Positions 1 to 11,407 of a DNA stretch of 64,000 bases are shown piece after piece (positions within the stretch are counted from its first letter, which is position 1; each line of letters opens with the position of its first letter). Source of the DNA: an uncultured delta proteobacterium (GTDB lineage Bacteria > Myxococcota_A > Polyangia > Polyangiales > Polyangiaceae); NCBI GenBank assembly GCA_963782055.1, contig CAWAIF010000003.1, positions 5,376,001 to 5,440,000 of the forward strand. The letters are read 5' to 3'. The notes beneath the pieces are model-generated. The model had not been told where the DNA came from, did no database searches, and saw only the letters and a program-made list of their open reading frames with translations. The position numbers and the translations under genes are program-made.

Positions 1-1
1 A

Positions 2-766
2 CGCTGGACTGCGCGCGCGCGGTGGGCGCGCACCTACGTGCACGACCTCGAGCTCGAGGCGCTCGGGAGCCCGGGCAGGAAGAAGCCGTTGGCCGCAGGC
101 GACCCCTGGTTGCCGTACTTGCCCCGCCTTGCACCGAGCGTCGCCGTGCTGGCCACCAACGGCTGCCTCGCCTTCGGTACAAGAACCGGGACGATGATGC
201 GGCTCGCCGAAGCCCTCGCCGAGATGGTCGAGCCAGCGACCGCTCGAGAACTACTCCGGTACTGGGTGGAAGAAAGAGAACACCGCTCGGAGGACATTCA
301 CGTCGCAAAGGAGGATGTATTGGCCTTCGCCGACCATCTCATCGATGAGTGCTTCGCCGGGCGCGGAATCCCGGTACGCACCTGGGCGCTCGCCGAAGCC
401 GCGGTGAAGAAGCTGTATATCGCCATCGGCGCCGGGCGGGCGGCGCCGATGGCCCTGACGGAGGAAGAATGCCGTCGCGCAGCCTTTCACGTCCTGCGCC
501 TCTTCTACGAGGCTCGCCACGGCTGCATCGTCATCACGGCCGAGCAATTCGGTCTGGCGCTCAAGCGCGACGACATCGGCGGGCTACCGGTACGCCGCCC
601 GAACCAGGCCCGTGTGGAGAGCGTTCGGAAGGCGATGAAGCGACTGCTTCTCACCCAGACCAGGGAGCCCAACTACACGAGCGGCAAGGCTGGCGAGTAC
701 GAGCTCGGCGCCCCCTATTGGCCCCCACCCCCAAACGGCGAGCCGCTCCTCTACCAGCCGACTTAG
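2..766 (+). CDS. 5'-truncated hypothetical protein, possibly C-terminal part of a Rep/primase (PriCT-like helical region plus wHTH-like end)
   Basis: Frame is open from base 2; segment GTRTGTMMRLAEAL...ARELLRYW..HRSED resembles primase C-terminal domains; followed by a large inverted repeat. Confidence 0.4.
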   Translation, partial: RWTARARWARTYVHDLELEALGSPGRKKPLAAGDPWLPYLPRLAPSVAVLATNGCLAFGTRTGTMMRLAEALAEMVEPATARELLRYWVEEREHRSEDIHVAKEDVLAFADHLIDECFAGRGIPVRTWALAEAAVKKLYIAIGAGRAAPMALTEEECRRAAFHVLRLFYEARHGCIVITAEQFGLALKRDDIGGLPVRRPNQARVESVRKAMKRLLLTQTREPNYTSGKAGEYELGAPYWPPPPNGEPLLYQPT

Positions 767-815
767 ACATTGGACCCCCTCTTTTCCCGAAGTATTTCGA
801 CGAGACCGCGTCGAA

Positions 816-1016
816 ACGACGCCAGTAAATAGAAAGGCCCGTGTGGTCCCGGTGGGGTGTCACCGGTGTCACCGACATCTGCCCCCCCCTCCTCTGCAGG
901 ATTGTAGTCCGCTACCGGAGAGTGTCCCTCCTGAGTTCGGGAGACCCAGGAGGGCTCACCGCCTTGGGGGATGACTAGGCGGGGCGCACCCACGCCTTTC
1001 TATTTACTGGCGTCGT
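816..1016. repeat. 23-bp perfect inverted repeat enclosing GGTGTCACC x2 and a hairpin; candidate origin
   Basis: ACGACGCCAGTAAATAGAAAGGC (816-838) vs GCCTTTCTATTTACTGGCGTCGT (994-1016); inner hairpin CCCTCCTG (926-933)/CAGGAGGG (947-954). Confidence 0.85.
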
Positions 1017-1257
1017 CTGTGGAGCAACCCGCGAGGAAACGCCGAGAAAACGAGGGGCCCAACTCCGAAGTCGATTCGTCAGGGGAGGTGGGCTTGGCAC
1101 CCTTGGTTCCTCAAGAGCCCCCCTTCACGTTCGCCGGCTTCACCGGCCGGAGCGGGAAGAACACCGACGACCGTGCCGTGGTTATCGGGCACGGCCACAT
1201 TCTTGTACTCGTCGTCGTCAACACGGGAGAACGCGCGGCCGGAGCTAAGGCCTGGCC

Positions 1258-1587
1258 GTGTTCGGAAAGAAACGCTCGTTCCTATTCGAGGCGAAGAACT
1301 GGAGCTACTACTCACCGACAGTAATCGGCAAGGCGCTGCAGCACGACGCCCAGAAGCTGCGTGAGCTGGACACACGGAGGTCTCGCACGGGCTTCGCATT
1401 CCTGAAGAAGCCCTCGAGGTACTTGCTGCTCTTCGGGTACGAGGGCCGCGACGGGACGCATGACGAGCAGCTTTGCTCTGCCGCCGACGTCGAACTCGTC
1501 GGAAGTGCGCGATTTCGTGCGGCTGCCGGTCCGAGCCGGGAGATGACCATTTCATCATCACCGTGTTCGGGGTCACGTAGTGGTCGC
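1258..1587 (+). pseudogene. Possible degenerate gene remnant next to the intron insertion site
   Basis: Protein-like stretch FLFEAKNWSYY...YLLLFGY with an E-x-K motif; in-frame stop just upstream and no clear start. Confidence 0.25.
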
Positions 1588-1627
1588 ATTGGTAGATCCT
1601 TACACCTTGGCCGCCCTACGGCGGCGG

Positions 1628-3143
1628 GTCTCTGCTTAGCGGCCGGAAGACGGCCCGCGGCCCGGGCGTGACGTCGACCGTCGGAGGACTCGCCGGCTAG
1701 TGGGCAAAGACAGACGGAGGCGGCTTGCCGTGGAGGTGACTTTCGTACAGCCCGATGACGAAGCCCCGAAGCGGGAGCCGGCACTTGCGCCGCGTCTGCG
1801 TGATGCTCATCCAGTGCGCCAGGGTGGCGCTGCCGGCGGCCGAGCGCGTGCCGCCGGTCATCGCGCGGTGCCGCCCGTGGGCGCGGATGTCGCGTTCGGT
1901 CGCGTTGTTCGTGGCCGGGACGTCGGGGCGGTCGATGAAGAGCGTCACCCCCACCTTGTGCTCGTCGAGGCGCTCCTGCAGCCGGACGATGTCCGGGAAC
2001 TCCACGAAGTTGGTGCTGCTGATGAGATGGCCGAGGCGGATGCGCGCGCCTCGGCGCTGCTCGGGATCGCCGCTCGCCGCGGCCTGCTTGCCCGCGACGT
2101 AGAAGCCGATGAGTCGGTCGCGGAACTCCTCGGTCGCGGCGCACGGGGTGAGCTCGGCGATCTTCTTGGCCTCGCGGATGGTGTGCGCACCGCAGTAGGC
2201 GTGGGTCCAACCGTCGTGACTCGTGTACACGCCGTAGAAGTCGGTGCACAGGACGCCTTTGAAGCCCGCGCCGAGCATCGACTCGGCGACCCACGCGCCG
2301 CGCGACAGCTCGGCGCGGAAGACCGAGACGCGGTCGGTGCGCATCAGCCACATCCAACCCGGCACGCCGTCCTGTCGATGGCCGCTCTCGTCGAGGCCCG
2401 CCACGGGCGATGCGCGCACCGCGTCGACCAGCTCGTCGTAGCTCGGCGCCGAGCGGCGTCGCAATCGGTCGAACATCTGCGCCAGGCCGCCCGTCGTGAT
2501 CGAGATGCCGAGCCACTGTCCGAGGAACGCACGGATCTTGCCCAGCGGCATGTCCCGCTCGAAGCGCAGGTCCAGCGCCATCGCCTGCACGTTGGGGCCG
2601 AACGACACCGCGGCGACGCTCTTGCCCGCCGCCGGCGCGCCCGGCAGCTTCGCGACCACGCGCTTGTGGCACACCTCGCAGCTGCCGACGTGCGCCACGT
2701 GATGCGTCTGCCGCGGCTGCACCACTGGGATGTCGGTGACGACTGTGCTGTCCGTCTCGCCCGTCGCCACGACTGCCCCGCCACAGCTGCACGTCGCCGG
2801 CATCTCGTGCACGACTTCGTCGTCGACGTGGGCCGGTGCGGCGGGCCGCGATCCGACATGCCCCGCCTTGCGGCCGCGTGGCTTGCCCGAGGCCGCCCGC
2901 CGACCCTCGGAACGCGACGTCCGCCGCTTCCCGCGCTCCCGGAACCCGCGCTTCCACTCCTCGATCTCCTTGCGCAGCTTCGCCAGCTCTTCGCGAAGCG
3001 CGGCGTTCTCCTGCTCCAGCTCCTGGATCCGCTGCTCGGGCGTCACGTGATCCGGGATGCTCCCGATCAGGTCCCATGGAAAGAACTTCTCGCATCAGGA
3101 ACGAAGAATGGACCCACAGTGTGCGACACCGCTAAGCAGACAC
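1628..3143 (-). mobile_element. IS66-family element (single-ORF, ISBst12-like), 1516 bp
   Basis: Terminal IRs GT(C/G)TCTGCTTAGCGG (1628-1642 / 3129-3143); 8-bp TSD GGCGGCGG at 1620-1627 and 3144-3151. Confidence 0.95.
1697..3046 (-). CDS. tnpC: IS66 family transposase
   Basis: N-terminal coiled coil, GRKAGHVG, Cys zinc finger, DESG, TDFYGVY, CGAHTIR, TNNATERDIR. Confidence 0.95.
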   Translation of the reverse strand: MTPEQRIQELEQENAALREELAKLRKEIEEWKRGFRERGKRRTSRSEGRRAASGKPRGRKAGHVGSRPAAPAHVDDEVVHEMPATCSCGGAVVATGETDSTVVTDIPVVQPRQTHHVAHVGSCEVCHKRVVAKLPGAPAAGKSVAAVSFGPNVQAMALDLRFERDMPLGKIRAFLGQWLGISITTGGLAQMFDRLRRRSAPSYDELVDAVRASPVAGLDESGHRQDGVPGWMWLMRTDRVSVFRAELSRGAWVAESMLGAGFKGVLCTDFYGVYTSHDGWTHAYCGAHTIREAKKIAELTPCAATEEFRDRLIGFYVAGKQAAASGDPEQRRGARIRLGHLISSTNFVEFPDIVRLQERLDEHKVGVTLFIDRPDVPATNNATERDIRAHGRHRAMTGGTRSAAGSATLAHWMSITQTRRKCRLPLRGFVIGLYESHLHGKPPPSVFAH

Positions 3144-3230
3144 GGCGGCGGTTGGAGTCAAGACCCCCTCTCAAACCGTGCGTGCGGATTTCCCGCACAC
3201 GGCTTACCGGTGGTCTCTCGTGACGCGGCA

Positions 3231-4580
3231 TTACGCGGCCTCCGGGTAGCGGATGGTCCCGCGCAGGCGGTGGAGCCCGAAGCCTTCGACGAAGTAGTCG
3301 CGGGTCCAGCGCTCGGCTTGTCCGGCCTTGAGCTTCGAGCCGGCCCGTTTCAGGCGCAGCGCTCGAAGCCGTTCGTACACGTACTCGTCGAGTCGGTTGA
3401 ACTTCACGTCGGCGTTCCCGGTGCGAAAGTACTCGCCCCAGCCACGCAGCACGGGGTTGAGCTGCGCGACGACGTCGCGCAGGTCCGCGTGGCAGCATGA
3501 TCGCGGGGTGAGGTCCCTCACGCGCTGCCGGATCCGCTTCATCGCGCGAGCCGATGGCCAGCGCTGGAGGAAGTACACGCGTTTGCGCGACCTCTCCCAG
3601 ATGGACCCGCTCAAGCGTTTCCGCAGGTGGCAGCCGAGGAAGTCGAACCCCTTCTTACCCCAGGAGAGGTCCAGCTTCCTCGTCTTGTCCGGGTGCAGCT
3701 CGAGCCCGAGTCGCGTCATCACGTGCTTCACGCGAAGCTCGGCCTCGTCGACGTCACGCTTCGTCCTGCACATCACGACGAAGTCGTCCGCATAACGAAC
3801 CAGCTCGCCAAGATGCGCGCACCGCTTCGTCCACACGTCGTCGAGCACGGCGAGGTAGATGTTCGAGAGCAGCGGCGAGATCACCCCGCCCTGCGGCGTG
3901 CCGCTGGAGGGGTTGGTCACCGTGCCTTCGTCCATCACCCCCGCCGTGAGCCACTGCCGCAGCAGCTTGAGCACCCTCCGGTCCGAGATGCGCCGCTCGA
4001 CGAGCTTCATCAGCTTGTCGTGATCGATGCTCCCGAAGTAGTCACGGATGTCGGCGTCGAGCACGTGGTTGTACCCCTTCGCGCCGAGCTTCCTCAGCGT
4101 CTCCAGGGCGTCCGTCGCGCTCCGCCCGATACGGAAGCCGTACGAGCACGAGCGAAAGCTCGCCTCGAAGATCGGCTCCAGCACGAGCTTCGTCGCCATC
4201 TGCACCACCCGGTCTCGGACCGTCGGGATCCCAAGCGGCCGCTTCTTCCCATCGGCCTTCGGGATGTACCGGCGCAGCACCGCTGCCGGCCGGTACCTGC
4301 CTGCACGGAGCACGTCATGGATCTCTCCGAGGAGTCGATCCACTCCGTACACCTCGAGCGCCGCGATCGTCTGGGCATCGACGCCCGCGGCTCCCTTGTT
4401 CCTCCTTACCCGCTTCCACGCTTCCGCGAGGACGTCACGCCTCGCGATGCGGTCATACAGCGCGTGGAATCGGCGCTCCGGATGCCGCTTGGCCGCGGCA
4501 CACAGCCGGCGTTGCAGTTGTCGCACTTTGTCCATGGGCTGTCGCCGATGGGGGTGGTTGGGACCGGTCTCGCCGGCCAT
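3231..4580 (-). CDS. ltrA: Group II intron reverse transcriptase/maturase
   Basis: NKGAAGVD, RPLGIPTVRDR, GTPQGGVISPLL, RYADD, FDFLG, LNPVLRGW; start may instead be 4535. Confidence 0.97.
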   Translation of the reverse strand: MAGETGPNHPHRRQPMDKVRQLQRRLCAAAKRHPERRFHALYDRIARRDVLAEAWKRVRRNKGAAGVDAQTIAALEVYGVDRLLGEIHDVLRAGRYRPAAVLRRYIPKADGKKRPLGIPTVRDRVVQMATKLVLEPIFEASFRSCSYGFRIGRSATDALETLRKLGAKGYNHVLDADIRDYFGSIDHDKLMKLVERRISDRRVLKLLRQWLTAGVMDEGTVTNPSSGTPQGGVISPLLSNIYLAVLDDVWTKRCAHLGELVRYADDFVVMCRTKRDVDEAELRVKHVMTRLGLELHPDKTRKLDLSWGKKGFDFLGCHLRKRLSGSIWERSRKRVYFLQRWPSARAMKRIRQRVRDLTPRSCCHADLRDVVAQLNPVLRGWGEYFRTGNADVKFNRLDEYVYERLRALRLKRAGSKLKAGQAERWTRDYFVEGFGLHRLRGTIRYPEAA

Positions 4581-5160
4581 GCCCTCGCGCTTACCTGCTC
4601 CGCCGACACGACCACTGCAGGGGTCTTTCCCTCCTGCCGCGTTGTTCTTCACGGCGTTCGTTCGCGAAGCTCGCGCCTCGCTCTTCGGTACAGTGACCCC
4701 CTCGGACTCCCGCTGCGCAGCGGCCGACTTCGCCTCTGGCTTATACGACGCGCCTTGCCCCGACGAGGGCGACGCAGACGGGCCTCCCGAGTTCCGCACT
4801 CCTCCTTGCACGCGTGCTGCGCTCCCTACCCCGCCGGGACCGACGGCGCGTTTCGGATCTGGCGCCGCCGATATTGCCTTCGCCGCGACATGATCGGCTC
4901 GGCTCCCGGTTTGTAGATCTGACGAGGCTGCAAGCTTCACTTCATGTTGCGGCCCGCGTGCTCGCTCGGTCCGTGGACCCTTTCGACGCCCCGCTCGGCC
5001 AACGGGATCTCTCCCGCTCGGCTGGGGCCTGCTACCCGGCGCTCCGACGCTTACCGGTGCGGGACTCTCACCCGCTGGAGAAGCGCAGCTTGAGGCAGGT
5101 CGTTCGTCGGGCATGCCCGACGGACGACCTGCTTCTTCACGGCGCACCATGCGCGCAGCC

Positions 5161-5625
5161 CTACTCCGTCGGCGTCGGCTTCGACCTGTCCCTCGGTGAG
5201 GCTGCGGGGTTGGTCGCTACGCCCTCCCCGCGGGGCGGCTCCACCGATGGGGCCGGCGCGCTGACCTCACGGTCCATCGCGGCCGGGTCGACCACAACAC
5301 CCGCGTTCTTGAGCTTGTTCATGGCGACGCGCGCGGCGTAGGCCAGCCGGCGAAGTTCCGCTTCAACTTCTACAACGTCTTCTACTTCCGCCCGGCAGCG
5401 TGTGCCGTTCGGCATCGCGAGCAGCTTCGAGGGCGGGCGCGCTTCATCGCCGCGGAACATCGTCGCGGTGAGCTCGGCCAGGTGCTCGTAGATCAACGCT
5501 CGGGTCTGAGAGCGAACGAGCGCGCGCAGGACGGCGCTCAGAGGCTGCGGTGCCGATGGCGCCGCGGCCGGCGAAGGCGCCGTGGGCTTGGGGCGTGGCT
5601 TCGCCTTCTTCTTCTTCTTCTTCAC
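5161..5625 (-). CDS. Hypothetical protein with Lys-rich N-terminus
   Basis: GTG start overlaps the upstream TGA (GTGA); helical C-terminal half. Confidence 0.55.
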   Translation of the reverse strand: MKKKKKKAKPRPKPTAPSPAAAPSAPQPLSAVLRALVRSQTRALIYEHLAELTATMFRGDEARPPSKLLAMPNGTRCRAEVEDVVEVEAELRRLAYAARVAMNKLKNAGVVVDPAAMDREVSAPAPSVEPPRGEGVATNPAASPRDRSKPTPTE

Positions 5626-6113
5626 CCGGTCACGGCGGCGGCCCGCAGCGCCTCCAGCTGCTCCCTCAGCAGGGCGACGCGCGCGCGGTCCATCTGCAGC
5701 AGCGTGCTCACCAGGCGGCGGGCTTGCCGTCGCCGGCTCTCTTGCCTCCGCGACGGAACCAGAAGAAGGCGGAGCACTTGGTCTTCCTCGAGGCCGCCTC
5801 TGCGCCGGAAGTCGGCGCGATGCCGCTCCGTCTGCCGGCGGGTCTTGTAGCGGTGACAATGTCGGCATTTCAGGTGGCCCTTCCGAGCGAGGAGTAGATG
5901 GCACGGCAGGCGGCACGCCGGACACAGGATGGCGCGGCGGTGCCCGTGGCCGGCTGCAACATCGACGAGCTCTAGCCGGGCAGTCACCGGGGCGCCCGCG
6001 TCCGCCACGACAACGACGTCGACGTACTCTAGGTGTCCAAGCCGCGCACCGTAGGCGGCGCGAAGGTCCCGTGACCGCACCTCGCCCTTGCGGGGGACGA
6101 CAGCCTCAACCAC
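5622..6113 (-). CDS. Zn-ribbon hypothetical protein
   Basis: CPAC...CRHC..Y pattern; start overlaps the end of the upstream gene. Confidence 0.6.
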   Translation of the reverse strand: MVEAVVPRKGEVRSRDLRAAYGARLGHLEYVDVVVVADAGAPVTARLELVDVAAGHGHRRAILCPACRLPCHLLLARKGHLKCRHCHRYKTRRQTERHRADFRRRGGLEEDQVLRLLLVPSRRQESRRRQARRLVSTLLQMDRARVALLREQLEALRAAAVTG

Positions 6114-6633
6114 GAAGCCCGCCACGCGGAGCCGCCAAGAGAACGCGCTGGGCGCGTAGCCCGGCGATGGCGGACAAGCTGTTCTCGGTCCTGCGGCGCA
6201 CCGCCGTCGACAGCCCGAACACTTCCCGGGCCACCTTGGCCACATGCATGGCGAGCGCAGGGTTGTCCATCGTGCGCGCCAGCAGCGCGGTTGCCATCCC
6301 CTCGAGATTTTGCAGCTCGTGGCCCAGACCGACCTCGCCGGCGACAAGGTCCTCGAGGATGCGCTCGGCGGGGTCGCCGTCCGATTGGGCTTCGAGCGTC
6401 TCGCGCGCCCGCCGGGCCAACGTCAGGCTCGCGTCCGAGATGGTGAGATGCGCGAGGCTCACGGCGCGGTTGGAGCTGGCCGCACGCCGCTGCCGCTCCA
6501 GCTCGTTCGCCTCCTCGTGGGTCATCAGCTCCTGCGCGACCTCCGGCTCCGACGCGGTGGCGTCCACCAGCGTCACCTCTTCGGTGGCTGATGAGTTCAC
6601 CACCCGGAGTCCGGCGGTCCGTCGGATGCTCAT
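6106..6633 (-). CDS. Hypothetical helical protein
   Basis: ATGA overlap with upstream gene; plausible protein composition. Confidence 0.6.
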   Translation of the reverse strand: MSIRRTAGLRVVNSSATEEVTLVDATASEPEVAQELMTHEEANELERQRRAASSNRAVSLAHLTISDASLTLARRARETLEAQSDGDPAERILEDLVAGEVGLGHELQNLEGMATALLARTMDNPALAMHVAKVAREVFGLSTAVRRRTENSLSAIAGLRAQRVLLAAPRGGLRG

Positions 6634-7136
6634 GGGCGCCCCGCCGGGGAGGGGACCATGGGCCCCTCGTCGAGGAGGGTGGAGTAGGTGGCGAACTCGC
6701 GCGCCGCAGCACGTTCGGCCCCCTCCGCGCGGGCCTCCGCATCGTCAAGCGAGCGCCCCATGCCGGCCTTGTCGTCGGCCCGGCCCAAGAGCACCGGACG
6801 GCGGCGCCTCAAGCTGGCGCGGACGTGAGCGTGGTGCTCCTGACTTTGAGCGGCCAGGTCGCGGAGCTCGAGGATGTCATCGTCGGTAACCACCACCACC
6901 TTCGGGGCGACGGAACGCGCGCCCCGGCGCCACGCCAATGCATCCTCCAGCGTCGCCCCCGCCGCAAGCGCGAGCAGTACTTGTTCCACGCGCGCAAGTG
7001 CGCGAGCGGCGGCTTGCGGGTCGCGGACGTCGGGGAGCCATTCGGGGCCATGTTCACGCAGCTGCGTGAGCAGCCAGTGATGGATTGCCTCATCCGGAGA
7101 GGCCTTGGCGGGTGTGACCGATGTAACGTTTGTCAT
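6630..7136 (-). CDS. Hypothetical protein
   Basis: GGGAG RBS upstream; first gene of a coupled four-gene run. Confidence 0.55.
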   Translation of the reverse strand: MTNVTSVTPAKASPDEAIHHWLLTQLREHGPEWLPDVRDPQAAARALARVEQVLLALAAGATLEDALAWRRGARSVAPKVVVVTDDDILELRDLAAQSQEHHAHVRASLRRRRPVLLGRADDKAGMGRSLDDAEARAEGAERAAAREFATYSTLLDEGPMVPSPAGRP

Positions 7137-7197
7137 GTGATTCTCCCGTGAGTGTATTGTCCGCCGTGCACCACCCCGAAGGGAAGACGTGCTCTCT

Positions 7198-8712
7198 TCA
7201 TCTGGAAAGTAGAGTCAACGCTTCATCAAGGTGGCGCACGGCGTCTGCCCATCGGGCGGGCGCGCCCGCGCGGACCGACGCGGGGGGGTGACGCTCGTTC
7301 TCCTCGGCGAGTCGCTGGATGTCCTCCCGTACTGAGCGCAGCCGAGACAGCACGCGCCGCGTCCGTGGCCCATCCGGTCCTGCAGCCACCCTCGTAGGCG
7401 TCGTCGCTGGCTGGGCCTTGCCTAGGAGCGTGAGCGCCCCGCGCGCCGTGGGACTCCTGCCCTGCGCTTTCGTCGTCCTGAGGTAGTCCTCGAAGATGCG
7501 GGCCGGCACGCTCGCGAGCTGCTCGAACCTCGAGCACTCTTGCTTGGAAATGCCGAGGTCCGATAGTGCCGTCGCCTTCGGCGTCGTGAAATGGGTCGCA
7601 ACGTGCGACCTATTCCCCTTGCGCCCCGCCGGAGCCTGCGGGAGCTCCCGCGTGAGCTCGCCCAGTCGACGGCGAGCGCGCAGGAAAATCTCGTCGGCCG
7701 CCACACGCGCGGCCTCGGCGGCGAGTGCGGAGCGTAGGTAGGCGCGCACCGCGGCTGCGCGGTCCACGAGGTCTTTCGCCTCGGCCACATGGTGGCAGCG
7801 GACCAGTACGTCACGCGCCTGCTCGACGTGGGCGGCCAGCTCCTCTGGGCCCATGAGCACGAGCGCCGTGCTGGGCTGAGGCTGCGTATCGGCTTGGGCG
7901 GGCGGTGGCGATGCCGGCGTAGCCTGCGGCTCGGGGGAGGCCGCGGCCTCCCTGGCCGTGACGCTGGCGTGGAGTCGGGCAATCGCATCGCTCAGGGCGG
8001 GGGTCAGCATGATCTCTCGCATGTGCTCCGGGGTGTCGAGTCGCCGCCGCACTCCCTCGAGTACGCTGGGGTAGAGGGCGAGCAGGAGTGCATCGAGCTC
8101 GGCGCGGCGAGCTTGGCCGCCGCCGCCGCCGCGCTCAAGACCAACCCGTTCGTGCGTCAAGCTAACGAACCGCGCCATGTCCGGCGTGCGCTCGGCCACC
8201 GGGACCGCCCACTGAGTCAGCGGCGCCAGCTGGATGCCTTCAAGTCCATCGCGGACCGCGGCAGGAAGCCGGGGAGCGGGAGTCACGGTCGTGATGCTCT
8301 TGCCGTTCACCGTCATGGTGAACGTCTGGCGCGCCCATTGCGACGGGGGCGGACGCTCTGGGCCAACCGGCATCAGCCCAAGTGGAGGGGCCGAGCGGCG
8401 GGCGGCGGATGCTCGCAGCAGTTCCACGAGCGCCCGACGGGCACCGGGGTACGCGTCGACCACCTGCAGCCCAAACAGGTTCGCTGCGGCTACGTTACCG
8501 GCGCGCGTGTACGTCTCGAAGCGCTTGAACAAAGCGGGCAGGCCCAGAGGATAGTCGCCCGTCAGGTCCGCGGAGTCTTGGACGCGCGCGCGAATGAGGC
8601 GGACGAGCGGCTCCGCCTCCGCGGCGGCCGCGATGGTCTCGGCGACGCCCGTCAGCGCCGCGTCGGAGTCGCCGAGCGCGCCCCCTGGCGATGGGATGTT
8701 GTCGCGCATCAT
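7198..8712 (-). CDS. Hypothetical protein with a phage-type helical domain like that found N-terminal to phage MT-A70 methylases
   Basis: EAKDLVDRAAAVRAY...EIFLRARRRLGEL...LSDLGISKQECSRFEQLASVP..FE; no methylase motif seen. Confidence 0.55.
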   Translation of the reverse strand: MMRDNIPSPGGALGDSDAALTGVAETIAAAAEAEPLVRLIRARVQDSADLTGDYPLGLPALFKRFETYTRAGNVAAANLFGLQVVDAYPGARRALVELLRASAARRSAPPLGLMPVGPERPPPSQWARQTFTMTVNGKSITTVTPAPRLPAAVRDGLEGIQLAPLTQWAVPVAERTPDMARFVSLTHERVGLERGGGGGQARRAELDALLLALYPSVLEGVRRRLDTPEHMREIMLTPALSDAIARLHASVTAREAAASPEPQATPASPPPAQADTQPQPSTALVLMGPEELAAHVEQARDVLVRCHHVAEAKDLVDRAAAVRAYLRSALAAEAARVAADEIFLRARRRLGELTRELPQAPAGRKGNRSHVATHFTTPKATALSDLGISKQECSRFEQLASVPARIFEDYLRTTKAQGRSPTARGALTLLGKAQPATTPTRVAAGPDGPRTRRVLSRLRSVREDIQRLAEENERHPPASVRAGAPARWADAVRHLDEALTLLSR

Positions 8713-8741
8713 TGGCTGGAGTATGTATCACAATCTCCAAC

Positions 8742-9368
8742 ATGAAGCCATACACGTTCACGGCCGGGCAGGTGGTCGACCTCACCGGGATGAGCAAGCC
8801 GGTGCTCTCGGACCTCATCCGGCGCGGCATTCTTGCCCCGACCAGACATCGCGGGGCGGGCACGGGCGACAACCACCTCTTCGACACGGCGGACCTCCTC
8901 GGCATCGCGAGCGTCCAACGTCTTCGTCCGAAGGGCGAGACCACGAGCCTACTCAGAACCCTCTTCGAGTTCTGGCATTCCGACGAGGGCCTGCGTTTGG
9001 TCGACGGCCCGCGTCCCATCGCCGGGGTGGTCGTCATCGACGGCAAGGGAGTCTCCTTCCTGGCGGAGACGGACGTTGTGAGGCTGAGCGCATTGGTGAA
9101 GTCGGCGGCCTTCTACGTCATCGAGCCAAACAGTTTGGCGGAGGACTTGTTTGGCGACGTCGCGCACTTCCGCATGACCCACGAGCACATGGAGCCCTTG
9201 CCATCCGGACGTGAGCCGCGCCTCCGGCCGGCGGCGACGAAGAAGCCCCGCAAGGGCGGCGACACCAAGCCCGGGAAGAACAAGAAAAAGCTGCCCGCGC
9301 TGCTGCGTGAGTCCCGCGCGAAGTTGGAGACGAAGAAGCCCGGGAAGAAGAACGGGGGGAACAATTGA
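8742..9368 (+). CDS. MerR-like HTH DNA-binding protein
   Basis: FTAGQVVDLTGMSKPVLSDLIRRGILAP...HLFDTADL. Confidence 0.7.
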   Translation: MKPYTFTAGQVVDLTGMSKPVLSDLIRRGILAPTRHRGAGTGDNHLFDTADLLGIASVQRLRPKGETTSLLRTLFEFWHSDEGLRLVDGPRPIAGVVVIDGKGVSFLAETDVVRLSALVKSAAFYVIEPNSLAEDLFGDVAHFRMTHEHMEPLPSGREPRLRPAATKKPRKGGDTKPGKNKKKLPALLRESRAKLETKKPGKKNGGNN

Positions 9369-9721
9369 GCCAACAGTACGACGACGACTTCCCGATGCCG
9401 CCCGACCTGGTCGCCGAGCACGAGTACATCCTCACGCACGGCGAGCCGTACAACCCCCGTCCCATCCGCCTCCGGTCGCGTGGAGCGCCGGCATCGACCC
9501 GGGAAGAAGTAGCGCGCTTCCAGCGGCGCTGTCGCATGCGTGCTCGCCGGGCGAGTGTGCGCGGCCGTACTCCTCCCACCCGCCGGGCTCCGCGGTCACG
9601 TGGCCCCCGCGCCCGCGTCGGCCACGTCCACACCACGGCGACACCGCCGGCGCCGAGCTCCGACCCACCACCACCGCCCAGGCCGCCACCGCCGCCCTCG
9701 TTGCCGGGAGCGGCGCGATGA
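9365..9721 (+). CDS. Hypothetical Arg/Pro-rich protein
   Basis: 4-bp overlaps with both neighbouring genes. Confidence 0.45.
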   Translation: MSQQYDDDFPMPPDLVAEHEYILTHGEPYNPRPIRLRSRGAPASTREEVARFQRRCRMRARRASVRGRTPPTRRAPRSRGPRARVGHVHTTATPPAPSSDPPPPPRPPPPPSLPGAAR

Positions 9722-10275
9722 CCCGCAGGTCCTTCCCGCCGTTCGTCACGACCACGGTCGCCGCGGCGTACTGCGGCTACAAGGACGCGAGCGCCATCCG
9801 CAAAGCGCATCGCGAGGGACGCCTGCGGCCGGTGGGTCGCCGCGGCGGGACCGGCCCGTGGATGTGGGCGCTCGACGAGCTCGACCGATACCTGCGGGGG
9901 GAGCCACCGGCTGATACAATCGCGTCGGACCGCCTGAGTGCGCCCTCCGACCCTGGAGAAGTGCATGAAGGACAAGAAGCAGTGGTTGTACCGATGGAAG
10001 AACTGGCTCAGGGCCAGCGCCGTTCCGGGCGTCTGGCAGAGAAAGGAGGGCGGCCACTTCGTGCGGGTCCGCGTGATGGACCCGACGTCGGGGCACATGA
10101 AGGAAATCAAGAGGTCGCTCCCGGAAGCGGACGAGGCCACGGCCTACAAGTGGCTGAGCGAGGAGAAGAAGCGCATCCGCGCCGGGCTCGCCTCGGCGCC
10201 GCCTCAGCAGACGCGCTTCGCCGACTTCGTGACGTCCTTGGTGGAGCAAAAGGTGGCGAACAGGGACATCAGTAG
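9718..10275 (+). CDS. Excisionase-like HTH protein (frame runs on into the integrase)
   Basis: VTTTVAAAYCGYKDASAIRKAHREGRL...WALDELDRYL; directly upstream of integrase. Confidence 0.6.
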   Translation: MTRRSFPPFVTTTVAAAYCGYKDASAIRKAHREGRLRPVGRRGGTGPWMWALDELDRYLRGEPPADTIASDRLSAPSDPGEVHEGQEAVVVPMEELAQGQRRSGRLAEKGGRPLRAGPRDGPDVGAHEGNQEVAPGSGRGHGLQVAERGEEAHPRRARLGAASADALRRLRDVLGGAKGGEQGHQ

Positions 10276-11296
10276 CGCCAAGGGTCGCGAGCGTTGGCGA
10301 CACACGCTGACGCATCTCATCGCGGGCACGAAGGGCGAGAAGTCCGGCACCTTCGTTCCGGGGTTCGGGGAGTACTACATCGACCGGTTGCACGTGACGC
10401 ACGTCGAAGCCTGGCGGACGGGAATCGCCACGCTCATCGTGGCGGGGGACTACTCCCCGAACACGTGCAACAGCTGGCTCGCGATTCTGCGGGTCATCAT
10501 GCGAGCCGCGAAGAAGACCTTCGGGCTCGCCCACCTGGCCACCGAGGACGTGAAGGACTTCGACACGTCGGAGTTCGACACGTACACGGAGGAGGAGCCC
10601 AACGCGCTGCTCCCCGAGGAGGTGGGCCTCTTCTTCGAGGCCATGCGCACGCGGTACCCACAGTACTATGCCATGGCCTACCTCGGCCTCGTCACGGGCC
10701 TGCGACCGTCGTCGCTTCGCCCGCTGCGCCGCCGAGGACCGGAGGCTGACTTGCTCTGGGAGGAGGGGCGACTGCGGGTGCGTCGCTCGCAGACGCTCGG
10801 CAACGAGGTGATGAACACCACCAAGCAGAAGCGCAAGTACACCATCGACCTTCCGGAGGAGGTGATGGGGGTGCTGCGCTGGCACGTCGAGACGCAGCTC
10901 TCGACGCCGGAGCAGAAGGCGTCCGAGCTGCTCTTCCCCTCGGTCAGCGGGGGCTTCCGTTCGCCTTCCGTCCTCAACAAGCCGTTCGCCGAGGTGGCGG
11001 AGGAAATCGGGCTGGGCAAGAAGTTCACCCAGCGCGGGCTCCGCCGCACGTTCAACGACCTCGCCCGCATCGCGCAGGTGAGCGACGTGGTGACCCGGAG
11101 CATCTCCGGTCACCTCACCCAGAAGATGCAGGACCACTACTCGACGCCGAGCGCGGACGAGAAGCGGCAGAGCATCGCGCGCGTCATCGAGCTGGCCAGC
11201 CGCCGGCCGGCTCCCGCCCCCTCCCCTCCGGGAGGTGGTGCTCCAGGTGGTGCTCCGAACGCCGGAGGTGGTGCTCCCAACGACAAAGCCGGCTGA
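9965..11296 (+). CDS. int: Tyrosine recombinase/integrase
   Basis: TGLRPS, TTK, RGLRRTF, ISGH, QDHY; GGAG RBS; points toward the tRNA 3' end. Confidence 0.93.
   Translation: MKDKKQWLYRWKNWLRASAVPGVWQRKEGGHFVRVRVMDPTSGHMKEIKRSLPEADEATAYKWLSEEKKRIRAGLASAPPQQTRFADFVTSLVEQKVANRDISSAKGRERWRHTLTHLIAGTKGEKSGTFVPGFGEYYIDRLHVTHVEAWRTGIATLIVAGDYSPNTCNSWLAILRVIMRAAKKTFGLAHLATEDVKDFDTSEFDTYTEEEPNALLPEEVGLFFEAMRTRYPQYYAMAYLGLVTGLRPSSLRPLRRRGPEADLLWEEGRLRVRRSQTLGNEVMNTTKQKRKYTIDLPEEVMGVLRWHVETQLSTPEQKASELLFPSVSGGFRSPSVLNKPFAEVAEEIGLGKKFTQRGLRRTFNDLARIAQVSDVVTRSISGHLTQKMQDHYSTPSADEKRQSIARVIELASRRPAPAPSPPGGGAPGGAPNAGGGAPNDKAG
11233..11277 (+). repeat. Three 12-bp direct repeats AGGTGGTGCTCC, candidate integrase arm-type sites
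   Basis: Identical copies at 11233, 11245 and 11266, ~60-100 bp from the tRNA end. Confidence 0.7.
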
Positions 11297-11314
11297 GGGA
11301 CACCCTCAACCGGC
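11288..11314. terminator. Hairpin between converging int and tRNA
   Basis: GCCGGCTGAGGG-ACA-CCCTCAACCGGC followed by T-rich sequence. Confidence 0.55.
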
Positions 11315-11335
11315 CAATTTTCAGCGCTTTTTTCG

Positions 11336-11407
11336 AGCGGGAGAAGGGATTCGAACCCTCGACGTCCACCTTGGCAAGGTGGCACTCTACCACTGAGTTA
11401 CTCCCGC
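11336..11407 (-). tRNA. tRNA-Gly (GCC), CCA not encoded
   Basis: Acceptor stem GCGGGAG/CTCCCGC, anticodon arm CCACC-TTGCCAA-GGTGG, GGTTCGAATCC T-loop. Confidence 0.98.

Follow-up and report, generated by a model that had tools for sequence, protein, structure and literature searches.

A one-off IS66 insertion, probably accidental, in domain VI of a group II intron that follows a start codon

Can a bacterial group II intron take up a complete insertion sequence (IS) in its branch-point domain and carry it along? The question is raised by a locus near the start of a 64,000-nt stretch from an uncultured delta proteobacterium of the Polyangiaceae (assembly GCA_963782055.1, contig CAWAIF010000003.1, positions 5,376,001 to 5,440,000; hereafter the window, whose numbering is used below), where an IS66-family element lies between domain V (DV) and the 3′ end of a group II intron encoding a reverse transcriptase (RT)/maturase. 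The initial annotation, made from the sequence alone, proposed an intron-IS chimera that might still splice, with a one-off inactivating insertion as the fallback. Our analysis favors the fallback: with a probability of roughly 0.8, two independent selfish elements overlap here by accident, through a one-off insertion of IS66 into domain VI (DVI) of the intron.

The structural claims of the annotation were borne out. The 15-nt terminal inverted repeats (IRs) of the IS match at 14/15 positions, the transposase (Pfam PF03050, E = 1.5e-34; NCBIfam NF033517, 221.7 bits against a cut-off of 180 bits) is an intact 449-aa open reading frame (ORF) in the sense orientation of the intron, and an 8-bp duplication, GGCGGCGG, flanks the element at 1620–1627 and 3144–3151. 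The duplication shows that the IS transposed into DVI; from the nesting we infer the order of insertion. Both basal strands of DVI are intact, and the reconstructed, IS-free DVI is carried exactly by the seven intact IS-free copies of the intron in the genome, the fold showing A1593, the branch A and seventh base from the intron 3′ end, to be bulged as predicted. The downstream duplicate regenerates the distal hairpin GCCGCC-GUAG-GGCGGC, with a pairing probability (P) of 0.55–0.96 across folding runs.

The host element has the features of a mobile group II intron (a GUGYG 5′ end, DV, DVI with a bulged A, an RT/maturase ORF and recent copies) and is matched by Rfam models (Intron_gpII at 3145–3207, D1D4-4 at 4942–5077). 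Its RT/maturase scores above the TIGR04416 cut-off and has the GsI-IIC RT as best PDB match (197.6 bits); a domain search of the ORF found no endonuclease domain. Although the element was rightly called a group II intron, its 3′ boundary had to be moved by one nucleotide. An occupied IS4-type element of the genome reads CATG-[intron...ACCAATG]-CCCGATC, and 10/10 printed empty copies read CATG-CCCGATC. Because the empty copies have one G fewer than a boundary at 1588 implies, the intron DNA ends at 1587 and measures 2037 nt rather than about 2036, and the ligated exon junction expected for this copy is 5148/1586, not 5148/1587. If the 5′ end is GUGCG, the inserted DNA ends in AUG and departs from the AY rule for 3′ ends. 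The alternative ends GGUGCG...AAU are possible, and pairing of exon-binding site 1 (EBS1) through the G of the ATG favors GUGCG...AUG.

The joint structure was found only once. In the 7.58-Mb genome, one of nine intron copies (eight full, one broken) and one of 14 full IS copies take part in it. All eight other intron copies lack the IS, one of the two outcomes named beforehand as speaking against a chimera, and the IS, which keeps both of its ends, has moved alone to at least 13 other sites. Perfect 8-bp duplications flank ten of the 14 IS copies, and the target duplications of the 14 have no common sequence or consensus. Because six of these copies are flanked by repeats on either side, this IS appears to be in the habit of nesting in other mobile DNA. 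The broken intron copy has been interrupted by a different IS, which supports accidental overlap.

To look beyond this genome, we used a motif of DV and the 5′ strand of DVI, which matches the focal locus and fetched at least 116 genome and at least 120 metagenome loci; the family-wide counts given here and below are among the loci listed, in which related sites are not independent. These span Myxococcota, Acidobacteriota, Planctomycetota and others, and the motif occurs in the cultured Sorangium sp. So ce176 and Nannocystis punicea FL3. DVI is intact (35–68 nt) in 230 of 236 loci, four are too short to judge and two are cut off. A tblastn search detected no IS66 transposase in these loci and 0/232 assessable relatives are chimeric, so that the further chimeric copies anticipated at other exon sites were found neither there nor in the genome. 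A search of 300 genomes of the order with the transposase (a stricter first look) gave matches in nine genomes at 28–37% identity; a real DV adjoined these distant relatives at 0/11 loci, the lone motif match (L270) being spurious. The best outside matches of the intron in 41 related genomes were 77–78% identical, with no orthologous copy, the island flank at 700–1587 had only short, chance-level matches in 300 family genomes, and the intron family motif had no match in viral contigs.

Four public runs, two apparently of DNA (X1 and X3) and two of RNA (X2 and X4), were compared as contigs; transcription cannot be concluded from the RNA contigs that cover the intron. The contigs cover intron and IS and have zero depth on the island flanks. 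One contig in each of the two DNA runs skips the IS (joint 1617–3142), and listed contigs at the IS ends continue into unaligned letters rather than into the intron. Neither an IS-intron junction nor a splice-junction joint occurs among the listed contigs of the four runs, which is no evidence of absence. The full intron copies differ at three positions altogether. Private substitutions occur at 5001 and 3497 (R347C in the 434-aa numbering), both in the focal copy, and all four runs have the common allele at both positions. There is no evidence of co-mobility of intron and IS in this genome or in the samples searched, and spread of the two as a unit seems improbable.

Whether the IS-bearing copy could still splice was addressed by folding with DV enforced and taking the mean P over eight basal DVI pairs. 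Without exon, basal pairing falls from P = 0.95 in the IS-free form to 0.53 in the IS-bearing form, the remainder going to a decoy helix; with 10 nt of exon it falls from 0.91 to 0.03 and the decoy takes over. The decoy, formed by the IS right end and the 5′ basal strand, has no bulged A and an energy of −10.5 kcal/mol, compared with −7.6 kcal/mol for the native basal duplex. The comparison of folds suggested by the initial annotation allows both the native stem and the decoy. Its proposal that the IRs pair and loop out the IS holds when the IS interior is forced unpaired (P = 0.99 for the repeats, 0.64 for the native stem; duplex energy −24.3 kcal/mol), whereas otherwise the repeats pair at P = 0.01–0.23 and the decoy competes. 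Folds with 20 nt of exon were excluded as evidence, given that the IS-free control also collapses (0.02). DVI is described as toggling between the two splicing steps (PMC9294222). There also appears to be little selection for splicing here, because the upstream box is imperfect and the downstream frame is not protein-like while the opposite strand is. The focal copy probably splices poorly or not at all; by our estimate residual splicing is rather unlikely, and residual splicing without spread is likelier than spread as a unit. The GUAG loop as a required tetraloop contact was considered separately and rejected, GNRA occurring in only 25 of 157 DVI loops.

Several points weigh against the interpretation that we favor. 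Every conserved DVI base is kept in the IS-bearing copy, the DVI middle is freely variable (12–45 nt) among the lineage loci, and a chloroplast psaC intron has been given a 1,501-nt DVI loop (PMC2997540). The 1.6-kb folds are rough, and exon effects swing from 0.01 to 0.95 even in IS-free controls. Under uniform insertion, landing in DVI would be unlikely (expectation 0.001), a figure computed after the fact. The four runs, having no island flanks, cannot show the focal locus, and the two private changes may stem from the donor strain of the island rather than from decay.

An incipient chimera would be a group II analogue of the IStrons in which the IS ends pair, the 1.5 kb loops out and the intron splices and retrohomes carrying the IS. 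In its favor, DVI retains its basal strands, branch A and distal hairpin, RT and transposase are both intact and in sense, the DVI middle is variable, the IR duplex and the native stem form once the IS interior is masked, and the psaC intron provides a precedent for a kilobase DVI loop. We nevertheless consider such a chimera unlikely. With one of nine intron copies, one of 14 IS copies, none of the 232 relatives and none of the listed run contigs showing it, the original proposal finds no support; moreover, the unmasked IRs pair poorly in competition with the decoy helix, DVI must toggle between the splicing steps (PMC9294222), and an IS that keeps its own ends and duplication is moved alone by its transposase. 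The low prior chance of an insertion into DVI might instead suggest that the IS targets the domain VI hairpins of group II introns, a notion that is largely refuted by the 13 of 14 copies lying elsewhere despite eight free DVI targets, by duplications without consensus and by the absence of a real DV at all 11 loci with distant transposase relatives; we give it almost no weight. An assembly artefact that joined two multi-copy repeats is also very improbable. Both elements are indeed repeats and no compared run spans the junction, but against this stand the 8 bp duplicated exactly at the two junctions, the uniqueness of either flank, the lack of any N in the 7-Mb contig and the private alleles of both elements. 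In the accidental overlap that we prefer, the insertion is a routine example of a mobile element decaying through the entry of another, and the IS-bearing intron tests naturally whether 1.5 kb can be tolerated in a bacterial domain VI.

The host intron has a further property, absent from the initial annotation: its lineage is associated with start codons at both ends. In 224 of 228 loci, the branch A is followed by six bases of which the last three are ATG or GTG, the other four loci being mis-picked matches, and the next base varies; this count is given in preference to another, in which the ATG was partly built into the motif. By eye, six of the eight full copies in the genome have a plausible protein start in the frame of the terminal ATG. 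The frame from the terminal start codon is open for at least 100 aa at 95 of 125 sites, compared with 23 and 64 for the other frames. The 5′ exon likewise ends in ATG or GTG in 45 of the 47 loci with a recognizable 5′ end and in 9/9 copies of this genome (L088, a false 5′-end match, was excluded from the 5′-exon counts). A TAnnnT hexamer starts 14–17 nt before the splice site, and thus 5–8 nt upstream of the ATG/GTG, at 41 of 44 distinct outside sites and seven of nine own sites, against a background of 0.6% of 14,974 control RTG sites and 1.2% of 5,000 random CATG sites. This spacing is the usual distance from a −10 box to the transcript start, and the target genes therefore look leaderless. 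Shine-Dalgarno (SD)-like motifs are rare upstream of the target start codons (6/44 outside sites).

The EBS1 motif, at intron position 225–264 in the focal copy and its relatives (256 in the focal intron), changes with the target: CAUG is replaced by CAUC at GATG targets (five rows, one genome) and by CACG where the target is CGTG. The exon-ATG frame runs unbroken through domains I to IV into the RT in 8/8 full own copies; in 23 of 33 distinct relatives, the exon-start frame extends over 625 codons or more, and the other frames never exceed 75. In 155 distinct DVI, a compensatory pair of the basal stem is C-G in 143, U-A in 11 and mismatched in one. In 126 of 158 distinct DVI, the terminal start codon is preceded, at a distance of 7 nt, by AGGA, which is also part of the basal stem.

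The host intron pattern is well supported by these sequences. They suggest that the lineage recognizes only CATG by base pairing, at sites 5–8 nt downstream of a −10 box, and we infer promoter use, translation from the host AUG and splicing with a 3–4-nt 5′ exon. The introns probably represent an undescribed lineage that homes to leaderless gene starts, likely by reverse-splicing at promoter-opened DNA; the 5′ exon at splicing would be hardly longer than AUG, the RT would be translated from the start codon of the host gene, and DVI would serve both as branch helix and as a spare SD/AUG. No account of a leaderless or start-codon-targeting intron was found in the literature searched; Michel et al. 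2007 and Simon et al. 2008, outside that coverage, may bear on novelty. If the proposal is true, a specificity for promoter plus start codon, together with the 3–4-nt 5′ exon, the AUG 3′ end and the RT frame that spans the ribozyme, would be a fourth target type for bacterial group II introns, alongside homing sites, terminators and attC sites (PMC4424553), and would raise questions about RNA polymerase open complexes as targets. Gene starts beside such introns would be easily misannotated.

The history that we propose for the focal locus combines these elements. An endonuclease-less group II intron would have retrohomed behind an ATG in a tRNA-integrated island, to be transcribed from a host promoter with its RT read from the host AUG, while its last three bases would restore a start codon for the gene behind. 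The focal site is a poor one, with an imperfect box and no convincing gene behind. Later, an ordinary IS66 of low specificity would have entered the variable middle of DVI, most likely in an exchange with the identical copy that lies at 20 kb. A spare start that keeps the downstream gene translatable without splicing could allow DVI insertions to be tolerated, and such insertions could be the beginning of a group II intron-IS hybrid; that the focal copy represents such a beginning is quite doubtful.

Other members of the family provided additional observations. One RNA contig of run X2 (depth 4) skips 1334 nt of the window between 3216 and 4551, corresponding to the RT ORF, and may represent an ORF-less derivative of the focal intron or of a close relative. 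Ten loci with a 5′ end are short, with 253–1097 nt to DVI (L088 again excluded). At L160, GTGCGCCGTG, with which another intron starts, immediately adjoins the intron end, a tandem insertion behind the terminal ATG. The occupied IS4-type element (L282; G000:C3:4454166-4457643, DDE_Tnp_1) has CATG ends and was inserted with a 10-bp duplication; its end and a host TAACGT hexamer together formed the target later entered by the intron, an IS-created intron target. At L142, another insertion, which has a long ORF without Pfam match, interrupts the DVI 3′ strand of a family intron immediately ahead of the branch point, and no intron end was found within 2.6 kb. In the ninth intron copy of the genome (L281; G000:C3:2503251-2520738), the RT gene is broken by a 2.4-kb IS with an rve-type transposase, which we take to be IS21-like from its TG...CA ends; there is also an internal deletion, and an inversion between two IS copies.

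The IS in the focal intron is an ordinary IS66-family member. Its transposase ORF occupies 1350 of 1516 bp, with no second ORF, and the single ORF, short terminal IRs and 8-bp duplication are those of the ISBst12 group. It has 0 differences from the upstream copy at C3:5357081 and 10–30 from the other ten 1516-nt copies, counts that leave out two copies of other length. The identical pair (G000:C3:5357081-5358596 and window 1628–3143) is in inverted orientation, 19–20 kb apart; both members keep their duplications, and therefore no inversion occurred between them. The pair could act as a composite transposon carrying the intron 3′ end.

Table 1. Positions of the features of the intron, the IS and the adjoining island (window coordinates)
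Feature	Position	Strand	Remarks
Group II intron	1587-5147	minus	2037 nt without IS and one duplicate; starts GTGCG, ends ACCAATG
5′ exon end CATG = intron-binding site 1 (IBS1)	5148-5151	minus	ATG 5150-5148 in frame with RT ORF
−10-like hexamer TAGGGC, imperfect	5158-5163	minus	7 nt before start codon; family consensus TAnnnT, last T absent
22-bp hairpin near intron 5′ end	5092-5135	minus	
EBS1 CAUG	4889-4892	minus	in loop of GAGCCG...GAAGGC
RT/maturase ORF	3231-5150	minus	639 aa from exon ATG, or 434 aa from ATG 4535
Domain V	3172-3206	minus	AGC triad
Domain VI 5′ basal strand	3157-3168	minus	
8-bp target duplication, upstream copy	3144-3151	minus	
IS66-family element, single-ORF (ISBst12-type)	1628-3143	minus	1516 bp
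IS66 left IR	3129-3143	minus	
IS66 transposase, intact	1697-3046	minus	449 aa; same strand as intron
IS66 right IR	1628-1642	minus	
Decoy-helix strand	1626-1632	minus	IS right end + duplicate bases; can pair with 3160-3166, no branch A
Downstream duplicate + regenerated distal hairpin	1610-1627	minus	GUAG loop
Domain VI 3′ strand	1587-1603	minus	branch A 1593, AGGA 1600-1597, terminal ATG 1589-1587
Protein-like reading frame, opposite strand	1249-1586	plus	nuclease-like leads, scores <0.9
Tyrosine integrase	9938-11296	plus	
tRNA (Gly-GCC by eye)	11336-11407	minus	closes ~58-kb island holding intron and both identical IS copies

The island (G000:C3:5328937-5387335, about 58 kb) has a lower GC content and is bounded by the tRNA and a 44-bp repeat of it; window positions 1–11335 are its right end. 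The 93-aa frame behind the terminal ATG of the intron is not protein-like, and atlas matches for both flanking frames score below 0.9. Apart from the integrase, the genes of the island include those for a MerR-type helix-turn-helix protein, a PD-(D/E)XK nuclease and a Mu-type transposase, and one ORF is DNA polymerase A-like. Islands may be stacked here, as partial repeats of the tRNA lie at 5306005 and 5328747. Downstream of a 242-aa island ORF, a pair of 35-nt inverted repeats (816–850 and 982–1016; 86% complementary, 131 nt apart) is possibly an origin or att-like site.

How does the locus compare with known systems, as these are described in the parts of the sources cited? The closest in outline are the IStrons, in which the transposon ends are the intron ends (PMC4227781). 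CdISt1 and BcISt1 resemble the focal locus in having a transposase gene in sense inside the 3′ part of a self-splicing intron; they belong to group I, however, their IS parts are of the IS200/IS605 or IS607 type, and the whole intron transposes and often occurs in several copies (PMC4227781). The focal locus, in contrast, has a group II RNA and an IS66 with its own ends and duplication, in a single copy, so that neither the group I and IS200/IS605 or IS607 composition nor joint movement was found. An IS-split group II intron is on record from Methanosarcina mazei S-6, whose CL1A intron is described as 'divided by a transposase' (PMC8919778); both are cases of an IS nested in a group II copy, the focal one lying in DVI with the basal stem whole. 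No IS66-in-DVI chimera was found in the literature searched. The psaC intron of the Floydiella terrestris chloroplast shares the kilobase expansion of DVI, but is organellar and trans-spliced, belongs to an essential gene and, as described there, has no transposon, and its loop is a model rather than a splicing test (PMC2997540). With the ISBst12 group of the IS66 family, which is defined by the single ORF, the IS shares (for example with ISDge4) a single ORF, a 449-aa transposase, imperfect IRs starting with GT, an 8-bp direct repeat and many unrelated targets (PMC12898284), with no difference of substance in a comparison made without ISfinder.

Among described groups, the one closest to the focal intron is the specialized IIB1 clade of initiation or termination codons (Avi.groEL, EcKTE56.groEL), which targets translation signals like the focal lineage and has a 300–700-nt 5′-subterminal insert, the studied members lying inside stop codons (PMC12584367). 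The focal intron, with EBS1 at position 256, has no room for such an insert and none was found; its insertion next to a start codon agrees with the clade, although it follows the complete start codon, is preceded by a −10-like box and brings its own ATG end. The RT has class G[g1], whose 5′ ends are left undefined in the part of PMC8919778 concerned, as a candidate placement. Class C (IIC) introns share with the focal one a short EBS1-IBS1 pairing, an endonuclease-less RT and a transcription-signal target (PMC4424553, PMC12584367). Class C introns lie behind terminators or attC sites (PMC4424553, PMC12584367), whereas the flanks of the focal lineage, in which no terminator scan was made, show a −10-like box and a start codon and suggest insertion behind promoters and start codons.

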